From a virus (lineage: Duplodnaviria; Heunggongvirae; Uroviricota; Caudoviricetes): 30,775 nt of DNA. The notes under the pieces were generated by a model. That model was not told the DNA's origin. It was given only the letters and a program-made list of their open reading frames with translations, and made no database searches. The position numbers and the translations under genes were made by a program. Shown one piece after another: positions 6,831 to 24,311 of this stretch (its first letter is position 1; every line of letters starts with the position of its first letter). The DNA is taken from IMG/VR virus record IMGVR_UViG_2877958089_000005, one strand, 5' to 3'.

Positions 6831-7013
6831 ATGGTTGGCGAACATTTCAGCCGAACGCAGCAAAAGTGGGCTTGTGTGCAATTTATTGCCGAGGTATCTC
6901 TGATTGCAAACTGCAAGCCATCAGACTTAAAGCTCGCGCTCACTCTCATTGCAGACCTAGCAAACAGCGAAAATAACGAAACCGAAGATGATAATTTTTA
7001 TAAGGCTGATTAG
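6831..7013 (+). CDS. Small LexA-controlled protein, candidate Tum-like antirepressor N-terminal module
   Basis: 60-aa ORF directly downstream of the LexA box with SD GGGAGGG; ends at TAG 7011-7013, in the same frame as the following DinI-like ORF. Confidence 0.55.
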   Translation: MVGEHFSRTQQKWACVQFIAEVSLIANCKPSDLKLALTLIADLANSENNETEDDNFYKAD

Positions 7014-7016
7014 ATT

Positions 7017-7250
7017 ATGAGAATCAATATCACGTTGGATAAAGAGCAAAAAATTAGTCAGGCAACATTGGATGCACTTGAGGCTGAACTGTACCGCAAT
7101 CTTCAACCTATTTACCCAAAGACTGCTATCCGAATTCGCAAGGGCTCCGCTAATGGCGTTGAACTAAGCGGTTTGAAACTGGACGAAGATAAAAAACGAG
7201 TAATGGAAATCATGCAGCAGGTATGGGAGGACGATAGCTGGCTGCATTAA
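7017..7250 (+). CDS. DinI-family protein (SOS-associated; 186 Tum-like C-terminal module)
   Basis: 77 aa MRINITLDK...LDALEAEL.R...E.DKKRVMEIMQQVWEDDSWLH resembles E. coli DinI (MRIEVTI...IDALAGEL...ISEILQETWESADDW) along its whole length. Confidence 0.75.
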   Translation: MRINITLDKEQKISQATLDALEAELYRNLQPIYPKTAIRIRKGSANGVELSGLKLDEDKKRVMEIMQQVWEDDSWLH

Positions 7251-7252
7251 CA

Positions 7253-7321
7253 AACGCCGCCGGTGCTGAAACTTGCTTTCAGTGCTGGCGGGGTTGAACA
7301 ACTCGCACCGCGAGGCGCTAG
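7253..7321 (+). repeat. Direct repeat copy 1 (69 bp) with internal 15-bp stem hairpin
   Basis: aacgccgccggtgctgaaacttgctttcagtgctggcggggttgaacaactcgcaccgcgaggcgctag; about 60 of 69 positions identical to copy 2; arms ccgccggtgctgaaa / tttcagtgctggcgg pair fully if G-U wobble is allowed. Confidence 0.8.
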
Positions 7322-7445
7322 TTCTTCCTCTCAAAGTTTCTCGATGTTTTATTGGTTACACACCAGTGATGAATGGGACGTTACCTTAGCGGGTTTTATA
7401 GTGGCGCTGTGGCAGCACTAAATAAAATTCATTGAGGGCGATAAT

Positions 7446-7655
7446 ATGCATCGACTACCGGGCGAAATTCCGCAGCACAAAACTAAAAGCATCAAACTGA
7501 TGGCCATCGTTCATCGTCTGCAGCAGATAATGGTCAATGAGAATTTGACACCCGCCGAGCTGGTCGGGTGTGCCGAAATAGTCAGGGATAATTACGGCAA
7601 GCTGGATAGCATCAGCAAGCCGACACATTACTCACCGCCACCACGTCGACCATAG
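7446..7655 (+). CDS. Hypothetical small protein flanked by the two 69-bp repeats
   Basis: 69-aa ORF; GAGGG 7 nt upstream of ATG 7446; stop lies immediately before repeat copy 2. Confidence 0.45.
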   Translation: MHRLPGEIPQHKTKSIKLMAIVHRLQQIMVNENLTPAELVGCAEIVRDNYGKLDSISKPTHYSPPPRRP

Positions 7656-7657
7656 AT

Positions 7658-7726
7658 AACGCCGCCGGAGTTGAAACTCGCTTTCAGGTCTGGCGGGGTT
7701 GAACAACGAGCTACGCGAGGCGTTAG
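7658..7726 (+). repeat. Direct repeat copy 2 (69 bp) with internal hairpin
   Basis: aacgccgccggagttgaaactcgctttcaggtctggcggggttgaacaacgagctacgcgaggcgttag; same architecture as copy 1. Confidence 0.8.
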
Positions 7727-7788
7727 CCGGTCATAGCGTCGCAAATACTTCAACCGTCTGCTGGTTAAATAATTCGAGGTTTTTGGAC

Positions 7789-7983
7789 ATGCAAAATCCC
7801 CTTTCATCGAAAAATGACCCGTTTGCCGATTGGGCAAAGAATCTGACTTTAATGGCTTTAAATAACGACCTGAGCTCTCGCGAGGTGGAAAGCTACACCG
7901 CAAAAATGGTCGAGCAGGCCGGTAAAGATGAGCTATCAGTCGTTATCAAACACCTGTTAAATCACATCAGAATGCGCAAATAA
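7789..7983 (+). CDS. Hypothetical small protein
   Basis: Track ORF 7699..7983 begins inside repeat copy 2; ATG at 7789 (MQNPLSSKNDPFADW...) is a more plausible start; 64 aa. Confidence 0.4.
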   Translation: MQNPLSSKNDPFADWAKNLTLMALNNDLSSREVESYTAKMVEQAGKDELSVVIKHLLNHIRMRK

Positions 7984-7999
7984 GAGGAACTATATAAAT

Positions 8000-8101
8000 A
8001 TGTTATCTCTCGTTTATGAAAATCCGTGGACGACGATTTTTCTGATGATTGTTGCCAGCATGTGCCTCAACAGTGTTATTGGCGCATTGCGCGGTCATTA
8101 A
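8000..8101 (+). CDS. 33-aa hydrophobic single-TM peptide (MLSLVYENPWTTIFLMIVASMCLNSVIGALRGH); candidate small membrane toxin-like or regulatory peptide
   Basis: Below the ORF-track size cutoff; SD AAGAGGA (7982-7988) then ATG 8000; followed by a canonical terminator. Confidence 0.4.
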   Translation: MLSLVYENPWTTIFLMIVASMCLNSVIGALRGH

Positions 8102-8122
8102 TCGCGACAAAACCAGACTAAA

Positions 8123-8149
8123 GCCGGCACCCTGAATGCCGGTTTTTTT
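8123..8149 (+). terminator. Rho-independent terminator
   Basis: ccggca-ccctgaa-tgccgg stem-loop followed by ttttttt. Confidence 0.7.
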
Positions 8150-8309
8150 ATGCCATTTTTCCGCGAATTTCCCGTTTTTTAGTCGTGCATGCATCAGGTG
8201 CATGGTTTTGCATGCGTCAGTCTTGCCCGTTCTGTTCGTGCGCCGCCAGAGCTAGCGCGGATCCAGAGTTGTCATGCAACTGCATTAAAACCGCCCCATA
8301 AAGCGGGCA

Positions 8310-8328
8310 GGCGTGGCGGGGAAAGCAT
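8310..8328. other. Candidate cos site (cohesive-end sequence)
   Basis: ggcgtggcggggaaagcat matches 17 of 19 positions of the P2 cos sequence as I recall it (GGCGAGGCGGGGAAAGCAC); located in the gene-free GC-rich stretch upstream of portal gene Q, where cos lies in P2. Confidence 0.55.
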
Positions 8329-8532
8329 TGCGCGCCAGCGGTGGTGCGTATTATTAAAAATTATCGTCTGAGAACGTCGTGACGGCGCTGTAGTGGCCGG
8401 GTGTGATCGTGGGCGCGTGGTGCGTCTGTGGCGTGGTGCTAAAGGATGGGATCAGTTGCACAATTTTACGGTTTCGCTTTGGCTAATATCCATATTGAGA
8501 CTTTATGTTCCCCACAACAGTTGGAGGCTTTA

Positions 8533-8757
8533 ATGGATAACTATCATATTACAAAAGATGGCGATAAGTGGAAGTTGCAAAAAGAGGGCAATGACCGCCC
8601 TAGCAAGACCGCGACCACAAAGGCCGAGCTGATTAAAACAACATCTGAGTTTATGTCGAACAAAACAGGCTCGGTCAAAATTCACAAGGAAGATGGGAAA
8701 ATTCAGGAAGAACGCACTTATCAGAGAAAAGATGATCCTAAAAAGTCTAAAGGCTAA
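8533..8757 (+). CDS. DUF2188-like small protein (moron between cos and Q)
   Basis: ATG 8533 preceded by GGAGG; 74 aa MDNYHITKDGDKWKLQKEG...IHKEDGKIQEERTY..DDP..KG fits my recollection of the DUF2188 pattern. Confidence 0.55.
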   Translation: MDNYHITKDGDKWKLQKEGNDRPSKTATTKAELIKTTSEFMSNKTGSVKIHKEDGKIQEERTYQRKDDPKKSKG

Positions 8758-15340: not shown

Positions 15341-15637
15341 ATGACAGAAGGGGAAAAAGGCGTCCTGTCACTGTTTGTGATTGGCGTGATGATTGTTGTC
15401 GGAAAAGTGCTGGCGGGTGGTGAGCCCATTACCCCGCGCCTGTTTATCGGCCGCATGCTGCTCGGCGGTTTTGTTTCAATGGTCGCCGGTGTTGTTCTGG
15501 TGCAGTTTCCAGATATGTCACTGCCTGCCGTTTGTGGGATTGGATCCATGCTCGGCATTGCAGGTTATCAGGTGGTGGAAATCGCCATTCAGCGCCGCTT
15601 TAAGTCACAACAGGGGGATAGCGATGCCGGTCATTAA
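15341..15637 (+). CDS. Y: Holin (P2 gpY family)
   Basis: 98 aa with hydrophobic helices (LSLFVIGVMIVVGKVLAGG..., LLGGFVSMVAGVVLV...); immediately upstream of the endolysin. Confidence 0.85.
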   Translation: MTEGEKGVLSLFVIGVMIVVGKVLAGGEPITPRLFIGRMLLGGFVSMVAGVVLVQFPDMSLPAVCGIGSMLGIAGYQVVEIAIQRRFKSQQGDSDAGH

Positions 15638-16121
15638 TACTCACCAGAATATCGCCGCGTTTCTGGACATGCTGGCCTATTCCGAAGGGACGGCGATGCA
15701 TCCGCTGACGAAAAATCGTGGTTACGACGTCATTGTCACTGGCATTGATGGCAAGCCGGAAATTTTCACCGACTACACCGACCACCCTTTCGCACATGGC
15801 AGACCAGCGAAAGTGTTTAATCGACGCGGCGAAAAATCCACGGCATCAGGGCGTTACCAGCAGCTTTATCTCTACTGGCCGCACTATCAGAAACAGCTCG
15901 CATTGCCTGATTTCAGCCCGTTGTCGCAGGACAAACTTGCGATTCAGTTAATCCGGGAGCGCAGTGCCATTGAGGATATTAAAGCGGGGCGTATTGAGCG
16001 AGCAATTTCACGTTGCCGCAATATATGGGCGTCGCTGCCGGGTGCAGGTTACGGCCAGCGTGAGCACAGCCTCGACAAACTGGTCACTGTGTGGCGCACG
16101 GCTGGCGGGGTGATGGCATGA
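15624..16121 (+). CDS. K: Endolysin (P2 gpK-type lysozyme)
   Basis: Track ORF 15393..16121 includes a spurious extension overlapping Y; ATG at 15624 gives 165 aa (MPVINTHQNIAAFLDMLAYSEGTA...), the size I recall for P2 K. Confidence 0.85.
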   Translation: MPVINTHQNIAAFLDMLAYSEGTAMHPLTKNRGYDVIVTGIDGKPEIFTDYTDHPFAHGRPAKVFNRRGEKSTASGRYQQLYLYWPHYQKQLALPDFSPLSQDKLAIQLIRERSAIEDIKAGRIERAISRCRNIWASLPGAGYGQREHSLDKLVTVWRTAGGVMA

Positions 16122-16531
16122 AAATCCTGATAACGCTGCTGGTGATGGCCGTGCTCGGGCTGCTGTGGTTGCGCCATGAGAACGGCAATTTATCCCGCTC
16201 CTTTGAGACGGCAAACCGCGTCGCAAGCGAACAAAAGACGACGATTGGCATGCTGAAAAATCAGCTCAGTGTTGCCGGTCAGCTTGCCCGACGTAATGAA
16301 TCCGCGCAGGTGGAACTGCGCGAACAGCTCGCAAAGGCCAGCGCAGAGGCCAGCCGCCGTGAGCAGACGATAACGAGGTTACTTAATGAAAATGAAGCCT
16401 TTCGCCGCTGGTATAACGCTGCTTTGCCTGATGTTGTGCGTCGGCTGCACACCCGCACCGCCTGCGCCAGTGCCGGTAATTGTGGTCAGCGGATGCCCGA
16501 GGGTGAGCCTTTGTCCGATGCCGGGAAGTGA
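16118..16531 (+). CDS. lysB: LysB (Rz-like inner-membrane spanin)
   Basis: ATG 16118 overlaps the K stop (ATGA); N-terminal TM helix MKILITLLVMAVLGLLWL followed by a coiled-coil-like charged region. Confidence 0.8.
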   Translation: MKILITLLVMAVLGLLWLRHENGNLSRSFETANRVASEQKTTIGMLKNQLSVAGQLARRNESAQVELREQLAKASAEASRREQTITRLLNENEAFRRWYNAALPDVVRRLHTRTACASAGNCGQRMPEGEPLSDAGK

Positions 16532-16676
16532 CCCGAAAACCAATGGTGACCTGAGCGCAGATATCCGCCGTCTTGAGGGCGCGCTGACCGCCTGCGCGCT
16601 GCAGGTTAAAACCGTCAAACACTGTCAGGATGAACTCGATGCAGAAGCACAAAAGCCTGCGCAAAGCGCTGATTAA
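16386..16676 (+). CDS. lysC: LysC (Rz1-like outer-membrane lipoprotein spanin), embedded in lysB in another frame and extending into R
   Basis: 96 aa; lipoprotein signal MKMKPFAAGITLLCLMLCVGC followed by a Pro-rich stretch (TPAPPAPVPV). Confidence 0.8.
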   Translation: MKMKPFAAGITLLCLMLCVGCTPAPPAPVPVIVVSGCPRVSLCPMPGSDPKTNGDLSADIRRLEGALTACALQVKTVKHCQDELDAEAQKPAQSAD

Positions 16677-17106
16677 CGCCGTGCCGCAGCTCCGAAATAA
16701 TCCCGATATGCTGCGCCTTTTTGCCGACAACGGCCATACCGATTCCCGACTGGCGAGCTCGCTGTCGTTTGAAAAGGTGTACGTGCTTAACGTGGTGGTG
16801 ACCGACTTCACCGGTGACCTTGATTTGATATTCGTGCCGGTGCAGGCGTGGCTGCGTGAACATCAGCCGGACATTATGACCACCGACGACGGGCGGGAAA
16901 AAGGATTCACCTGGATTATTGATATCAATAACGACGATTCGCTCGATATCAGTATCAGCCTGAGGCTCACCGAGCGCACACTCGTCAAAGAGGTCGACGG
17001 CGCGCTGCACGTCAGCTATGCCCCTGAGCCGCCACTGCCTGAGCCGGTGACGCGCCCGGTCGAGCTGTACGTTAACGGCGAACTGGTGAGTAAGTGGGAT
17101 GAGTGA
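16630..17106 (+). CDS. R: Tail completion protein R
   Basis: 158 aa; position and size as P2 R. Confidence 0.8.
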   Translation: MNSMQKHKSLRKALINAVPQLRNNPDMLRLFADNGHTDSRLASSLSFEKVYVLNVVVTDFTGDLDLIFVPVQAWLREHQPDIMTTDDGREKGFTWIIDINNDDSLDISISLRLTERTLVKEVDGALHVSYAPEPPLPEPVTRPVELYVNGELVSKWDE

Positions 17107-17545
17107 ATTAACCGTGCTGCAGGAACGCCTTGCCGGTCTGATTGCCAGCCTGTCACCGGCGGCACGTCGGCAAATGGCGGCTGAGATTGCGAAAAAGCTG
17201 CGTACCAGTCAGCAACAGCGTATCAAGCGCCAGCAGGCACCCGACGGCACCCCGTATGCGGCACGAAAGCGCCAGCCGGTGCGGAGCAAGAAAGGTCGGA
17301 TTAAACGTGAAATGTTCGCCAAACTGCGCACCAGTCGCTTTATGAAAGCCAAAGGCAGCGACAGTGCGGCGGTGGTGGAGTTTACCGGCAAGGTGCAGCG
17401 CATGGCGCGGGTTCATCAGTACGGCCTCAAAGACCGGCCAAACCGTAACAGCCGGGATGTGCAGTACGAGGCGCGCCCGTTGCTCGGTTTCAATAGTATA
17501 GATATGAGAATTATTGAGCGGTTAATAATTGGGGCTTTGGATTAA
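17099..17545 (+). CDS. S: Tail completion protein S
   Basis: 148 aa; overlaps the R stop; the C-terminal codons run into the AT-rich cargo junction, so the C-terminus may have been remodelled by the insertion. Confidence 0.8.
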   Translation: MSELTVLQERLAGLIASLSPAARRQMAAEIAKKLRTSQQQRIKRQQAPDGTPYAARKRQPVRSKKGRIKREMFAKLRTSRFMKAKGSDSAAVVEFTGKVQRMARVHQYGLKDRPNRNSRDVQYEARPLLGFNSIDMRIIERLIIGALD

Positions 17546-17573
17546 TTATGATCTAATATATTATTTTGTGATG

Positions 17574-17602
17574 AGGCTGGATAAACACCAGCCTTGATTT
17601 TA
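17574..17602 (+). terminator. Hairpin terminator at the S/cargo junction
   Basis: aggctgg-ataaacac-cagcct stem-loop followed by tgatttta; lies between convergent S (+) and the HIT gene (-). Confidence 0.5.
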
Positions 17603-18244
17603 TAGTTTGAAATCTGCGTAATTATCAATAACCTCTAGAACACCGCTGATGTTGTTATCTCTGCGCCAATTCCAATTGCCATGTATCAAATTTGCATTAG
17701 AATAAAGATATCTAAGGAACTGAGATGGTAAGAGTGGTTTGTTGCATAAAAATTCATCATAACTATTACTCATATACCACACATATCCATTTTTAATGTC
17801 AAAACTTAAATTCTCACCTTCAATTTTCTTAAAGTTAATTTCTTTATTTAGAGCATTTTCAAACTCTTGCGTATAATAAACACAGTGTATATGAGCGTGA
17901 GAAATGCACCCTCCCGAACGATCTATATTTTCACCTGCTCCGCTTTCAAAGAAAATTAGAGATCTACCAGATTGGTGGATTATAAATTCATTAAGTTCTC
18001 GCAGAATCTCCTTGCCATTACTCCGGGTATCTCGATCAAGAGCAGCAAAGGAGTTGATATGCCGCTTAGGAATCAGCATCACATGCGAATTATTTAGCGG
18101 GCCAATACTAGGTACAATTAGAAAATCATTTGTTTCTGCAATGATATTTTTCTTGTCATTTACGATTTCATCGTATCCTTTGATAAGGCTAATGCCATTT
18201 ATTTCATCGCATATTCCACAGAACGAATTACAAGAATTATTCAC
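17600..18244 (-). CDS. HIT (histidine-triad) family nucleotide hydrolase/transferase-like protein with a C-terminal extension; cargo gene 2
   Basis: 214 aa. Histidine triad H116-A-H-I-H120-C-V (GGCISHAHIHCVYY); upstream Hint-like FLIVPSIGPLNNSHVMLIPKRHI and N-terminal NSFCGIC, comparable to E. coli HinT as I recall it (ETIFSKII / THILIIPN / VYHIHMHLLGG). GTG start at 18244 with SD CAGGAGA 8 nt upstream, inside the 3' end of the TM gene. Confidence 0.8.
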   Translation of the reverse strand: MNNSCNSFCGICDEINGISLIKGYDEIVNDKKNIIAETNDFLIVPSIGPLNNSHVMLIPKRHINSFAALDRDTRSNGKEILRELNEFIIHQSGRSLIFFESGAGENIDRSGGCISHAHIHCVYYTQEFENALNKEINFKKIEGENLSFDIKNGYVWYMSNSYDEFLCNKPLLPSQFLRYLYSNANLIHGNWNWRRDNNISGVLEVIDNYADFKL

Positions 18245-18803
18245 GTTTATTGTCTCCTGGTTTTTTAGGGAGCAATTTTTCAGCCCAAGATGCGAGTCGG
18301 CTTAGAACTAAGTCTGAAAAATATCCTAATATAAAACAAATCGAGAATGCAATTTTGGTCTTACCATGCCCTTTAATGGAGGATACAAACGTATCCGGAG
18401 ATAATAGCGTATAAGAACAAAAAGCCACTAAAGCAGCTAAGAACGGAATAAAAATCCTCCAGTAGAACTTATGGGATTCCCAAGGGAAATTATACTGATT
18501 GTTTTTCCCTCTAGCAGTTACTCTATAAAACCATTTTGCATTATACACCCACCCTCCAAAAAAACCGCCAAGAATAGAAAACAAAGATATTTTATTATTA
18601 TATGTCAGCTCAAAAACAAATTGAAAAAGAAAGGCGAGAATGCAACCTATTACAAAAAGAACTATTAAATAAGCAAATTCGAATTTTATTTGTTCACAAT
18701 CGTTATTAAAATAAGGCACAACCTCATCATCGCCTAAGGTTTTTTTTCTTTCAGTCATTTGCCAAACACCTTCATTTTTTACTGTGAGCCAGGGTAATTG
18801 CAT
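18237..18803 (-). CDS. Polytopic inner-membrane protein (about 4 TM helices); cargo gene 1
   Basis: Hydrophobic segments FAYLIVLFVIGCILAFLFQFVF, ISLFSILGGFFGGWVY, FYWRIFIPFLAALVAFCSYTLL, IAFSICFILGYFSDLVL; basic C-terminal tail. Track start 18809 is TTG; first ATG is 18801-18803. Stop overlaps the HIT gene start region. Confidence 0.7.
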   Translation of the reverse strand: MQLPWLTVKNEGVWQMTERKKTLGDDEVVPYFNNDCEQIKFEFAYLIVLFVIGCILAFLFQFVFELTYNNKISLFSILGGFFGGWVYNAKWFYRVTARGKNNQYNFPWESHKFYWRIFIPFLAALVAFCSYTLLSPDTFVSSIKGHGKTKIAFSICFILGYFSDLVLSRLASWAEKLLPKKPGDNKRE

Positions 18804-18934
18804 ATTCAACTTGGCTATTCTAATTAATTCTCACAAGATTTCATAGATGTTGAGTAGACCTCTCAGAAGTTGTTTCATTCCTCACAGAATCCATCTCGAT
18901 TGCCACTAATCTTGCCGGGCGTCATCCTTCCCAT

Positions 18935-19570
18935 ATGAAAAATCTAAATTCTTTGCAAGAAATCGCACGCGCGATCCGAAATCTCATCCGTACCGGCATC
19001 GTTAGCGACGTAGACCTCAAGGAGGGGCTATGTCGTATCCAGACCGGGGGGATGCAAACCACTTGGCTGAACTGGCTGACCACCCGAGCCGGTCGTTCGC
19101 GGACGTGGTGGGCTCCCTCGGTCGGTGAGCAGGTTCTGCTGCTGGCAATCGGTGGCGAGCTTGATACCGCTTTCGTGCTGCCGGGTATTTTCTCCGACGA
19201 TAATCCCGCCCCGTCTGCCTCGGCGGATGCGTGGCATGTGGCTTTCCCTGATGGTGCGGTCATTGAGTACGAGCCCGAAACCGGCGCGCTGACGGTCAGC
19301 GGCATAAAAACGGCCGACGTGACGGCATCGGAGTCCATCACCGCAACCGTACCGCTGGTACTGGTGAAAGCCTCGACCAGTATCACCCTCGACACCCCGG
19401 AGGTGATTTGCACCAATAAGCTAACGACGGCGACGCTTGAGGTGCAGAAAGGCGGCAAGATGAGCGGCAATATCGAACATACCGGCGGGTCACTGTCGTC
19501 TAATGGCAAGGTACTCCACACCCATAAACACCCGGGCGACAGCGGCGGGCAAACGGGGGCACCGTTATGA
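18935..19570 (+). CDS. V: Baseplate spike protein V
   Basis: 211 aa; MKNLNSLQEIARAIRNLIRTGIV...GKVLHTHKHPGDSGGQTGAPL closely resembles P2 gpV. Confidence 0.9.
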   Translation: MKNLNSLQEIARAIRNLIRTGIVSDVDLKEGLCRIQTGGMQTTWLNWLTTRAGRSRTWWAPSVGEQVLLLAIGGELDTAFVLPGIFSDDNPAPSASADAWHVAFPDGAVIEYEPETGALTVSGIKTADVTASESITATVPLVLVKASTSITLDTPEVICTNKLTTATLEVQKGGKMSGNIEHTGGSLSSNGKVLHTHKHPGDSGGQTGAPL

Positions 19571-22491: not shown

Positions 22492-23084
22492 TGAAACCTG
22501 TTTTTGATGAAAATGGACTGGCTACAGTGCCGGGTGATATGCGTTGTTTTTATTATGATGCAGTAACGTATGAATATACGGGCTGGTCTGATGAATATAT
22601 TAATACTGGTGTAAGTATGCCCGCCTGTTCCACTGGTATTGACCCGGGCGAAAACATTCCGGGAAAAGTGGCAGTATTTACAGGTAAGGGATGGAGCCAT
22701 GAAGAAGACCATCGCAATGAGACTGTTTACTCAATCGAAAATGGTGCTGCTGTTACAGTGGATTATATCGGTGCCATCAAAAACGGTTATGTCACGCTTT
22801 CACCGTTAACGCCATATGATAAATGGGATGGTGAGAAATGGGTGACAGATACTGAGGCACAACACGGTGCCGCAGTAGAAGCGGCAGAAGCACAGCGCCA
22901 GTCACTGATTGATGCAGCAATGGCTTCCATCAGTCTGATTCAGCTGAAATTACAGGCCGGGCGGAAGCTGACGCAGGCAGAAACCACCCGGCTTAACGCC
23001 GTGCTTGATTACATTGACGCGGTGACGGCAACAGATACGAGCACCGCGCCGGATGTCATCTGGCCTGAACTGCCGGAGGCGTAG
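22491..23084 (+). CDS. G: Tail fibre assembly chaperone (P2 gpG / Mu U type), expressed orientation
   Basis: 197 aa; start overlaps the H stop; C-terminus ...PDVIWPELPEA parallels the C-terminus of the inverted copy (...PDIEWPTPPAVQAR). Confidence 0.8.
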   Translation: MKPVFDENGLATVPGDMRCFYYDAVTYEYTGWSDEYINTGVSMPACSTGIDPGENIPGKVAVFTGKGWSHEEDHRNETVYSIENGAAVTVDYIGAIKNGYVTLSPLTPYDKWDGEKWVTDTEAQHGAAVEAAEAQRQSLIDAAMASISLIQLKLQAGRKLTQAETTRLNAVLDYIDAVTATDTSTAPDVIWPELPEA

Positions 23085-23637
23085 GCCATTCAATATCTGG
23101 CGCACCGGAAGTATCGACCAGTTCCAGTGCGTCCAGATAATCCAGCCACAAATTATATTGCGCCAGTTCCTCACCTTTCAGGCGACCAATCGCCGCTTTA
23201 CCAGGCCATTGCTTACTGTTTATGTATTCGNNNNNNNNNNNNNNNNNNNNNNNNNNNNNNNNNNNNNNNNNNNNNNNNNNNNNNNNNNNNNNNNNNNNNN
23301 NNNNNNNNNNNNNNNNNNNNNNNNNNNNNNTCGCCGCTTTACCAGGCCATTGCTTACTGTTTATGTATTCGTTGACCTGATTAATCAATTGCTGCTTTTC
23401 CAGTTCGGCTGCGGCAATTTGTTCCTCATGAGTTGGCGGTGGAATATCAATCCATGCTGGCATTCCGTCGATGACACCTCTGTACTTTCCTTCTGGTGCT
23501 TCCTTCATAAATTCAGCGGCAGCAGTGTCGTCAATTTCGATTCCATCATCAGGCCATTTCCCCGCTTCCTGATAAGCAATTTTAAGCTCCACAGGGAAAA
23601 ACGCATTTTTATCAGCACTGAAAATATATTTCTGCAT
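23056..23637 (-). CDS. Alternative tail fibre assembly chaperone (U'-type), silent orientation; interrupted by a 100-N assembly gap
   Basis: 193 aa including X residues from the N-run; coordinates and length are only approximate because of the gap. Confidence 0.6.
   Translation of the reverse strand: MQKYIFSADKNAFFPVELKIAYQEAGKWPDDGIEIDDTAAAEFMKEAPEGKYRGVIDGMPAWIDIPPPTHEEQIAAAELEKQQLINQVNEYINSKQWPGKAAXXXXXXXXXXXXXXXXXXXXXXXXXXXXXXXXXXEYINSKQWPGKAAIGRLKGEELAQYNLWLDYLDALELVDTSGAPDIEWPTPPAVQAR
23231..23330. other. Assembly gap (100 N) flanked by an exact 41-bp duplication
   Basis: tcgccgctttaccaggccattgcttactgtttatgtattcg occurs at 23190-23230 and again at 23331-23371, either side of the N-run; consistent with overlapping contig ends scaffolded with a spacer. 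Confidence 0.9.
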
Positions 23638-23639
23638 TT

Positions 23640-23993
23640 CTACCGTCCTATCGAAATATAACTGAATCTGTATTGTTGAGAGATATCACTGATTGCCACG
23701 CGCCACGCTGAATTACTGATATGTTCAAAATTTACAGATAAAACCAGCGGTGCAGGATTCGACGGTTCTGACTGAACGGCATCAGACATGACACTGACTG
23801 AAACAAGCGGTTGATTAGGGAATGGTATAGGGAAGTGTCCACTGATAATGCGGGTCGTGTTCCCTGAAAAAGTGCCAAACTGAACAATATATCCACCTGG
23901 TAGCCTGAACCATCCCGAGCCAGAAGCGAATGCTCCCATATCCGGTATCTGATTTTCCCCTGTCCCCACATTCCTTCTTGCCGCTTCTCCCAA
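23640..23993 (-). CDS. Alternative tail fibre C-terminal segment (Sv'), promoterless in this orientation
   Basis: Reading the minus strand through the right hix-like site gives LGEAARRNVGTGENQ..., sharing the junction LGEGA/LGEAA with H; it would be fused in frame to the H constant region after inversion. Confidence 0.65.
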   Translation of the reverse strand: MGEAARRNVGTGENQIPDMGAFASGSGWFRLPGGYIVQFGTFSGNTTRIISGHFPIPFPNQPLVSVSVMSDAVQSEPSNPAPLVLSVNFEHISNSAWRVAISDISQQYRFSYISIGR

Positions 23994-24010
23994 ACCAACC
24001 TTTTAGAAAA
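23985..24010 (-). repeat. hix/gix-like inversion crossover site (right inverted repeat)
   Basis: ttctcccaaaccaaccttttagaaaa; its reverse complement ttttctaaaaggttggtttgggagaa shares TTGGTTTGGGAGAA with the left site. Confidence 0.7.
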
Positions 24011-24064
24011 TGCAGATATTCCGTTCAGCTGGCATGTTCCCGACTTTTTACCGGGTTATTTCTC

Positions 24065-24311
24065 ATGTTTATCGGTTATGTACGTGTATCAACAAATGAC
24101 CAGAACACCGCATTACAGCGAAATGAACTGGAGTGCGCAGGATGTGAGCTGATTTTCGAAGATAAAATCAGCGGCAAAACATCAATCAGACTGGCCGGGG
24201 CTAAAGAGGTTACTCAGAACCTTGTCAGAGGGCGATACGCTTGTGGTCTGGAAACTGGATCGCCTCGGGTATCTCAACGCTATACAAACAATTTCCCGCA
24301 TCCGTTGCTGA
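24065..24311 (+). pseudogene. Remnant of a Hin/Gin/Pin-family serine DNA invertase (frameshifted and C-terminally deleted)
   Basis: ATG 24065: MFIGYVRVSTNDQNTALQRNELECAGCELIFEDKISGK... resembles the Hin N-terminus, including the catalytic Ser in YVRVSTNDQ; the conserved GDTLVVWKLDRLG is encoded one frame over from about 24231, implying a 1-nt insertion; similarity ends near 24270 and FI begins at 24410, so over half the gene, including the DNA-binding domain, is missing. Confidence 0.7.

Follow-up and report, generated by a model that had tools for sequence, protein, structure and literature searches.

Which function might be served by a pair of genes that lies antisense between the tail genes of a P2-like prophage, and that encodes a small membrane protein next to a HIT enzyme? 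The question is raised by the IMG/VR virus record IMGVR_UViG_2877958089_000005, a stretch of 30,775 nucleotides (hereafter the window, meaning the whole of this stretch) that corresponds to nearly the whole of a P2/186-like prophage of Escherichia coli; it is matched at 100% identity in strain AST217, where the prophage is sited between yfiB and rplS. The two genes, for the membrane protein (MEM) and its HIT partner (lengths in amino acids, aa), are the following:

18237-18758, minus strand: coding sequence of MEM, a 173-aa four-helix inner-membrane protein (WP_001544871.1, PHROG 22917), defined from the open reading frame list, PGAP, the homologue alignment, an AlphaFold2 (AF2) model and dN/dS
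17600-18244, minus strand: coding sequence of the 214-aa CwfJ-type HIT protein (WP_001544870.1, PHROG 23000), directly downstream of the MEM gene

On sequence grounds, HIT and four-transmembrane (4TM) proteins of these kinds form a conserved module, which occurs either alone, as here (type A), or in operons with additional enzymes that are directed at nucleotides or DNA (type B). With moderate confidence, we interpret the pair as a prophage-expressed module of anti-phage defence or exclusion, in which MEM would be the active partner.

The HIT gene directly follows the MEM gene in every complete locus examined, i.e. in the window and in 18 independent loci, which span Enterobacteria, Pseudomonas, Halomonas, Herbaspirillum, Undibacterium, Marinilabiliaceae and metagenomes; at the most distant named reach, in the Marinilabiliaceae (Bacteroidota), the two proteins still show 36% and 33% identity. 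The two genes are closely spaced, with a stop/start overlap of 4-8 nt in many loci, and in the window the GTG start of the HIT gene (18242-18244) overlaps the MEM stop by 8 nt. Around 40 pairs of MEM and HIT clusters, obtained in two independent homologue searches, have longest contigs of equal size, and the pairwise identities of the two proteins are correlated with r = 0.92 over 171 locus pairs. Thus, the partnership with a HIT enzyme, which a preliminary description had proposed from the letters of this DNA, is an obligate one.

The HIT partner scores above the Pfam cut-offs for CwfJ_C_1, DcpS_C and HIT, while CwfJ_C_2 is not detected in it by sequence. It carries the HxHxH motif on a HIT fold, which places it in the HIT superfamily: H116, H118 and H120 (the HAHIH triad) are invariant, and there is also a conserved N-terminal CxxC. 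Given the invariant triad, it is probably catalytically active. Its C-terminus is formed by a family-specific domain of about 90 residues with the invariant motifs GY.W, N.PLLPSQFLRYLY and WNWRR, and this extra domain sets it apart from Hint, Fhit, Ap4A phosphorylase, GalT, aprataxin and DcpS, all of which lack it. The eukaryotic CwfJ module is found in CWF19L1/Drn1 and CWF19L2/Cwf19, which are spliceosome and lariat-debranching cofactors; in contrast to these, the bacterial protein is a stand-alone form of 214 aa with neither an N-terminal metallophosphoesterase nor a CWF19 region, shares 11-20% identity with the eukaryotic module, and has its own invariant HxHxH triad as well as a membrane-protein partner.

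MEM itself shows the features of a polytopic inner-membrane protein, with three clear hydrophobic segments and one marginal one, and with four long helices in the AF2 model. Kyte-Doolittle peaks are seen at 45-67, 74-95 (weak and Gly-rich), 117-138 and 151-173 in a 190-aa numbering, the maxima for transmembrane helices (TM) 1 to 4 being 2.9, 1.2, 2.2 and 2.1 in this copy, with family medians of the 17-residue hydropathy maxima of 2.63, 1.36, 2.06 and 1.82. The AF2 model, computed with 112 homologues as input (pLDDT 84, pTM 0.78), has helices at 20-48, 53-81, 95-118 and 133-162 in the 173-aa numbering. TM2 is marginal on hydropathy alone and is placed by the short loop of 4-6 residues to TM1 together with the model. 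The segments are distributed as follows:

18609-18677, minus strand: TM1 (residues 28-50), with the hydropathy maximum of 2.9 and AF2 helix 20-48
18537-18590, minus strand: TM2 (residues 57-74), Gly-rich and marginally hydrophobic, with an invariant GGFxGGW, from hydropathy, alignment and AF2
18459-18536, minus strand: invariant loop KWFYRVTARGK..Q....W..HKFYW (residues 75-100) between TM2 and TM3, the most conserved part of the family
18396-18458, minus strand: TM3 (residues 101-121), from hydropathy and AF2
18294-18353, minus strand: TM4 (residues 136-155), with a conserved F..GYFSD motif, from alignment, hydropathy and AF2

Following the positive-inside rule, the N-terminus, loop 2 and C-terminus together hold a mean of 12.0 Lys and Arg against 3.4 in loops 1 and 3, a bias whose sign is shared by 112 of 112 members of the family, and both termini and the basic-aromatic TM2-TM3 loop are predicted to face the cytoplasm (N-in/C-in). 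Hydropathy, the AF2 model and the positive-inside bias therefore agree on the small polytopic protein with four helices that had been expected from the sequence. The tail that was described as basic at the same time is indeed net basic in this copy (six K/R versus four D/E in the last 18 residues), but this is not a family feature (means of 2.8 versus 2.4); rather, the invariant basic element is the TM2-TM3 loop. Across 112 sequences, K75-Y78 (KWFY), R79, T81, A82, G84, Q88, W93, K97 and W100 are invariant; the conservation is concentrated in KWFYRVTARG at the cytoplasmic end of TM2, nearly all of which is invariant, and in Q....W..HKFYWR..P, which runs into TM3.

This pattern bears on another account of the pair, in line with the 'transporter-like anchor' of the preliminary description, namely that MEM is a passive anchor or scaffold, neither toxic nor an effector, which merely tethers the HIT enzyme to the inner membrane and leaves the work there to it, for instance on incoming DNA ends or nucleotide-activated lipid or sugar intermediates. 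We regard this as unlikely: an anchor would require neither the near-invariant run and the invariant glycines of TM2, nor a mean conservation above that of the enzyme (57% identity for MEM versus 46% for HIT), and the type-B systems described below keep the same TM protein next to a second large soluble enzyme. That MEM is conserved more strongly than its partner, and most of all in the cytoplasmic loop, argues for a specific role in signalling or interaction.

Sequence searches place MEM in an unnamed family. Among 5.8 billion proteins, 119 homologues of about 165-215 aa were recovered (E down to 1e-95) from Pantoea, Proteus, Halomonas, Pseudomonas, Undibacterium, Rhodoferax, Herbaspirillum and many metagenomes, none of the 119 with a Pfam domain or an informative name. 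A profile of the family, searched against 1.84 billion representatives, yielded 390 clusters (50% identity) at E <= 1e-3, just 21 of them below 1e-30. The corresponding PHROG 22917 is a family of unknown function, and no Pfam, PADLOC, PDB (profile search) or fold match was obtained for MEM. The gene is under strong purifying selection, with a dN/dS of 0.05-0.14 relative to the Pantoea and IMG/VR relatives.

In the more distant relatives of MEM (E ~1e-15 to 1e-23), GGxLGG, KW/F-x-Y-x-V-A-x-G, WR..P and GYF-D are retained as motifs. These relatives belong to the type-B operons, which show one gene order in five independent loci: the HIT gene (207-224 aa) comes first and is followed by the gene for the 4TM protein and by one for a protein of about 840-880 aa. 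The five loci are:

L036, 4299-9248: type-B locus
L039, 4317-8107: type-B locus
L042, 2102-6315: type-B locus
L045, 4450-9646: type-B locus
L047, 4370-9616: type-B locus

The HIT proteins of these loci match the partner family with an hhalign probability of 97-99%. Three of the five also encode a D12 (Dam-like) adenine methyltransferase, and the copy from L036, the one that was scanned, has PADLOC PD-Lambda-5_B as its best match (E 4e-68). The large protein belongs to a family of at least 558 clusters; its label as a MazG-superfamily NTP pyrophosphohydrolase comes solely from JGI and NCBI names, and it has no Pfam (PRA-PH at E 0.1 being noise), PADLOC or PDB sequence or profile match above noise. 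Its N-terminus may bear some resemblance to a PPDK_N/ATP-grasp domain. The gene content of the type-B operons points to a nucleotide- or DNA-centred conflict system. An apparent HIT-membrane fusion of 412 aa in the type-B locus L041 (P0298, L041:2-1820), which would have spoken for an interaction of the two proteins in the Rosetta-stone sense, was rejected as a frameshift artefact: the HIT coding sequence of this locus is broken up among three frames, and the true HIT C-terminus (WNWR...stop) is encoded in another frame. The type-B locus L047 adjoins a gene for a 1741-aa DEAD/MZB helicase. In the metagenomic locus L019 (9173-9874), a Cytidylate_kin2-family gene begins 4 nt past the HIT gene and may provide a third component, a nucleotide kinase, in this lineage.

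How is the pair of the window expressed? The MEM reading frame ends with the TAA at 18237-18239 and offers three possible starts, TTG 18809, ATG 18803 and ATG 18758 (MTERKK), a choice that had been left undecided. The elements upstream of it are:

18767-18773, minus strand: Shine-Dalgarno sequence GAAGGTG, read from the sequence, the same in L002 and represented by other purine-rich sequences in L024 and L025
18759-18809, minus strand: in-frame upstream extension containing TTG 18809 and ATG 18803, with which no homologue aligns and which is interrupted by in-frame stops in L002 and L024
18817-18844, minus strand: sigma-70-like promoter candidate from a consensus scan, with -35 ATGAAA, a 16-nt spacer and -10 TAGAAT

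ATG 18758 is supported as the start because RefSeq/PGAP annotates the 173-aa form, because the 119 homologues begin at the equivalent position, because the closest P2-like carriers (Pantoea L002 and IMG/VR L024) have an in-frame stop two codons upstream of it, and because the Shine-Dalgarno sequence lies 8 nt upstream. These four lines settle the matter for MTERKK, the last of the three options; the two upstream starts are ruled out by the stops in the relatives and by the lack of any homologue reaching that far, and the extension is most likely 5' untranslated region rather than coding sequence. With this start, the soluble N-terminal region comprises about 27 residues instead of the roughly 45 first assumed.

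A promoter had been anticipated within 18810-18934, and a promoter-like element is present there: its -35 begins at 18844 and its -10, at 18817-18822, falls within AATTAATTAGAATAGCCAA, which is invariant across three P2-like carriers. The 110 nt upstream of the MEM gene move along with the cassette. Beyond the candidate promoter, the right end of the cassette (18845-18934) is conserved among the three carriers up to the start of gpV; the late promoter that serves the V operon on the other strand must therefore lie in it as well, in which case the divergent cassette and late promoters would share about 120 nt.

The immediate surroundings of the two genes are those of an inserted segment:

17099-17545, plus strand: gpS-like virion morphogenesis (tail completion) gene, the left flank and the last gene of one late operon
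17493-18920, no strand assigned: variable low-GC cargo segment, delimited by the composition profile, by homology break-points against L032-L035 and by alternative site occupants
17572-17596, no strand assigned: GC-rich hairpin from a terminator scan, flanked by the stops of two convergent genes, gpS (17545) and HIT (17600)
18935-19570, plus strand: baseplate assembly protein V (gpV), the right flank and the first gene of the next late operon

By its composition profile, this 1.4-kb island is low in GC (about 32%) relative to its flanks (about 58%). MEM and then HIT, both on the minus strand, lie within it, antisense between gpS and gpV, and the island takes in the last ~17 codons of gpS; homology to the sister prophages breaks at ~17493 and resumes at ~18920. 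The hairpin is likely to be a bidirectional terminator. An Rfam scan of 17000-19500 gave zero RNA family matches. The atypical composition, the antisense orientation, a conserved -10 and a terminator hairpin of its own, and presence or absence among near-identical phages mark the cassette as prophage cargo (a 'moron'). The island is carried by eight of 5426 complete E. coli genomes. Among sister prophages with flanks of 91-99% identity, five states of the gpS/gpV junction are found:

L035, 1019-1088: empty, with a gap of 68 nt
L032, 1116-1952, minus strand: a 278-aa pentapeptide-repeat protein, antisense
L033, 1045-2088, plus strand: a 347-aa protein in sense orientation with no match at all
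L034, 1079-1942, minus strand: a 287-aa protein, antisense, with a PADLOC PD-T4-7 match (E 5e-9)
The window: the pair of MEM and HIT

Across sister E. coli prophages, gpS/gpV is thus a site of swappable cargo. In P2 a hotspot is known between A and Q (old/tin), and in P4 between psu and int (Rousset et al., 2022, PMC9122126); further defence hotspots, within tail genes, are reported in a survey from 2026 that covers thousands of P2-like phages (PMC13586616). In the present prophage, the canonical P2 hotspot between replication gene A and portal gene Q (window ~6832-8757, L001:7287-9212) holds just small hypothetical genes, DinI and a DUF2188 protein. Farther downstream, the tail-fibre region (window ~22807-24170, L001:23262-24625) includes a second tail-fibre-assembly gene in inverted orientation, a tail-fibre fragment that is truncated at its N-terminus, and a recombinase gene with a frameshift, which look like the remnants of an invertible host-range switch.

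The phage-borne setting and the size of MEM, a small protein with multiple TMs, could suggest a holin-like or lysis-timing protein, and a few holins do occur in the list of fold matches from BFVD. We consider this to be barely credible. Those matches fall short of significance (E > 1), a lysis cassette with holin, endolysin, LysB and LysC is already present upstream in the prophage (15341-16676), the MEM gene is antisense to the late operons, and the pair is absent from sister prophages and found outside prophages as well.

A sample of about 25 loci provides the wider context. The pair is found at gpS/gpV in IMG/VR contigs and in a P2-like prophage of Pantoea as well. Pseudomonas prophages of an unrelated family carry it between an early gene and the gene for an S24 CI repressor. 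In Halomonas meridiana (L012:1259-7675), it is directly downstream of a four-gene Wadjet-like (JetABCD-type) operon coding for DUF3584 (JetC-like), MksE/JetB, a 421-aa protein and DUF7281 (JetD-like). The role first suggested for MEM, that of an effector which disrupts the membrane in abortive infection or superinfection exclusion, is plausible and fits these contexts, i.e. a cargo site that elsewhere holds a PD-T4-7-like gene, a CI-repressor region and a Wadjet neighbour, though this is an association only.

The same contexts allow other kinds of cargo to be judged. One is lysogenic-conversion or metabolic cargo, in which the pair would remodel the envelope or handle alarmones (Ap4A etc.) or nucleotide sugars, with MEM as a small transporter or flippase. 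In some sources, HIT relatives do go by the name of 'Ap4A hydrolase' or 'ATP adenylyltransferase', housekeeping genes surround several of the loci, and prophage cargo sites also hold genes other than those of defence. We nevertheless find this improbable, as no Pfam GtrA, flippase or transporter match rises above noise, there are no glycosyltransferase or lipid-enzyme neighbours, and the pair recurs next to Wadjet as well as at immunity or cargo sites in two prophage families that are unrelated to each other. Candidate matches of MEM to a GtrA-like flippase or small transporter in Pfam and NCBIfam were discarded as sub-threshold noise (LptF_LptG, 13.8 bits versus 27.9; uracil/xanthine transporter, 14 versus 370).

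Another is a toxin-antitoxin or addiction module that stabilises the prophage or island, with MEM as the toxin held in check by HIT, or the reverse. A closely spaced, horizontally mobile cassette of two genes with a patchy distribution, comprising a small membrane protein and a soluble partner, has the outward form of such modules; but a 214-aa enzyme with an intact catalytic triad would be an atypical antitoxin, and the type-B relatives have three to four genes, which makes this a decidedly improbable account. It overlaps with the defence interpretation, because many toxin-antitoxin modules double as abortive-infection systems.

Several results weigh against a defence function. In PADLOC-DB v2.0 (2023, 5027 models, covering SLATT, S-4TM, KwaA, Zorya, Rst, PD-T4, PD-T7 and PD-Lambda among others), zero families are matched at E <= 1 by MEM or HIT. 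The fold search with MEM returned generic helical-bundle matches only, with no pore in particular supported, and nothing significant among the BFVD viral structures. The gene was not found in INPHARED phages (megablast, tblastn) or PLSDB plasmids (tblastn). The number of promoter-like sites in the region, by consensus scan, is not above that in shuffled sequences. In L018, L019 and L020, the pair sits among housekeeping genes without defence neighbours. Finally, a truncated locus of a Desulfobacterales metagenome-assembled genome (L007:1-471), the sole exception to the pairing, has a MEM homologue with a different C-terminal extension and without a HIT gene.

As to the neighbourhood of that exceptional locus, its MEM homologue is directly upstream of ftsA-ftsZ, and the type-B locus L036 is directly downstream of ftsQ-ftsA-ftsZ; this adjacency could be fortuitous, could stem from a chimeric assembly or could mark a real insertion site.

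Small pairs of an enzyme and a membrane protein have precedents in phage defence. A 'hydrolase + TM' system with a HAD-like hydrolase has been described on P4, and a TIR + TM system likewise on P2/P4 elements (Rousset et al., 2022, PMC9122126). They resemble the present pair in combining a small enzyme with a small multi-TM protein on swappable cargo of P2-like phages or satellites, with the TM protein as the presumed suicide effector. They differ in that the enzyme here is a CwfJ-type HIT protein rather than a HAD or TIR protein, that MEM has neither sequence nor fold match to their effectors, and that the site is gpS/gpV rather than A/Q (old/tin) or P4 psu-int. The PADLOC system Rst_Hydrolase-3Tm was accordingly set aside as a match, being built on a HAD-like hydrolase and found at P4 psu-int, not on a HIT enzyme at gpS/gpV of a P2-like phage (PMC9122126). 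The PADLOC model 'ThsC2|ThsC', which is described as HIT family, gives no match to the HIT protein of the window and matches a type-B HIT protein at just E 0.0045.

A further comparison is with the superinfection-exclusion membrane proteins of prophages and with RexB-type membrane effectors encoded beside cI. MEM resembles them as a prophage inner-membrane protein of a cargo or immunity region, and the Pseudomonas pair adjoins the CI repressor; however, no homology to them is detected, MEM is obligately coupled to an enzyme, and the pair occurs outside prophages as well. A literature search (HIT, histidine triad, CwfJ or MazG combined with phage defence, and both WP accessions) retrieved no description of a defence system in which a HIT or CwfJ protein is paired with a membrane protein, and the DefensePredictor and metagenomic-selection papers have no HIT system in their main text. 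Hence, the logic of the cassette is familiar, but both of its components are new.

Bringing these observations together, we infer a defence function for the pair, a direction of signalling within it and an effector role of MEM. HIT enzymes attack the alpha-phosphate of NMP-X via a His-NMP intermediate, and their substrates include dinucleoside polyphosphates (NpnN), NMP-amidates, 5'-adenylylated DNA and cap structures. During infection, the cytoplasmic CwfJ-type HIT enzyme would act on a nucleotide-linked substrate and would probably make, remove or hydrolyse a nucleotidyl group or signal. MEM would then probably read the state or the product of the HIT enzyme through its conserved basic-aromatic cytoplasmic loop, and it would respond at the membrane, either by an ion leak with loss of membrane potential (abortive infection) or by blocking genome entry. 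Any specific direction of signalling between HIT and MEM is doubtful at present. More broadly, and as a tentative proposal, MEM and the CwfJ-type HIT protein may be the core of a new superfamily of nucleotide-centred anti-phage systems, with a two-gene type A and a three- to four-gene type B, in which a nucleotidyl mark or signal made, destroyed or removed by HIT would gate MEM, as a new four-helix membrane effector, via the KWFYRVTARG loop; the C-terminal module of the spliceosomal CWF19 would then share ancestry with the enzyme of a bacterial conflict system.

If the pair does act in defence, two families would be newly tied to this function, as judged from the libraries and papers searched here, namely an orphan 4TM protein with an invariant cytoplasmic loop and a bacterial relative of CWF19/Drn1 with an intact triad, and the gpS/gpV junction of P2-like phages would be a cargo site worth mining. 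The two-gene form also connects to the larger family of three- to four-gene operons, i.e. to the at least 558 clusters of MazG-annotated partners and the 390 MEM clusters. If its function is other than defence, it still represents a widespread, strongly selected and wholly unannotated pair of a membrane protein and an enzyme. To our knowledge, the biochemical activity of the eukaryotic CwfJ domain is unclear, and the link to CwfJ would give a tractable bacterial model for it. A confirmed defence role would, moreover, make this a further eukaryotic module with relatives in bacterial conflict systems.

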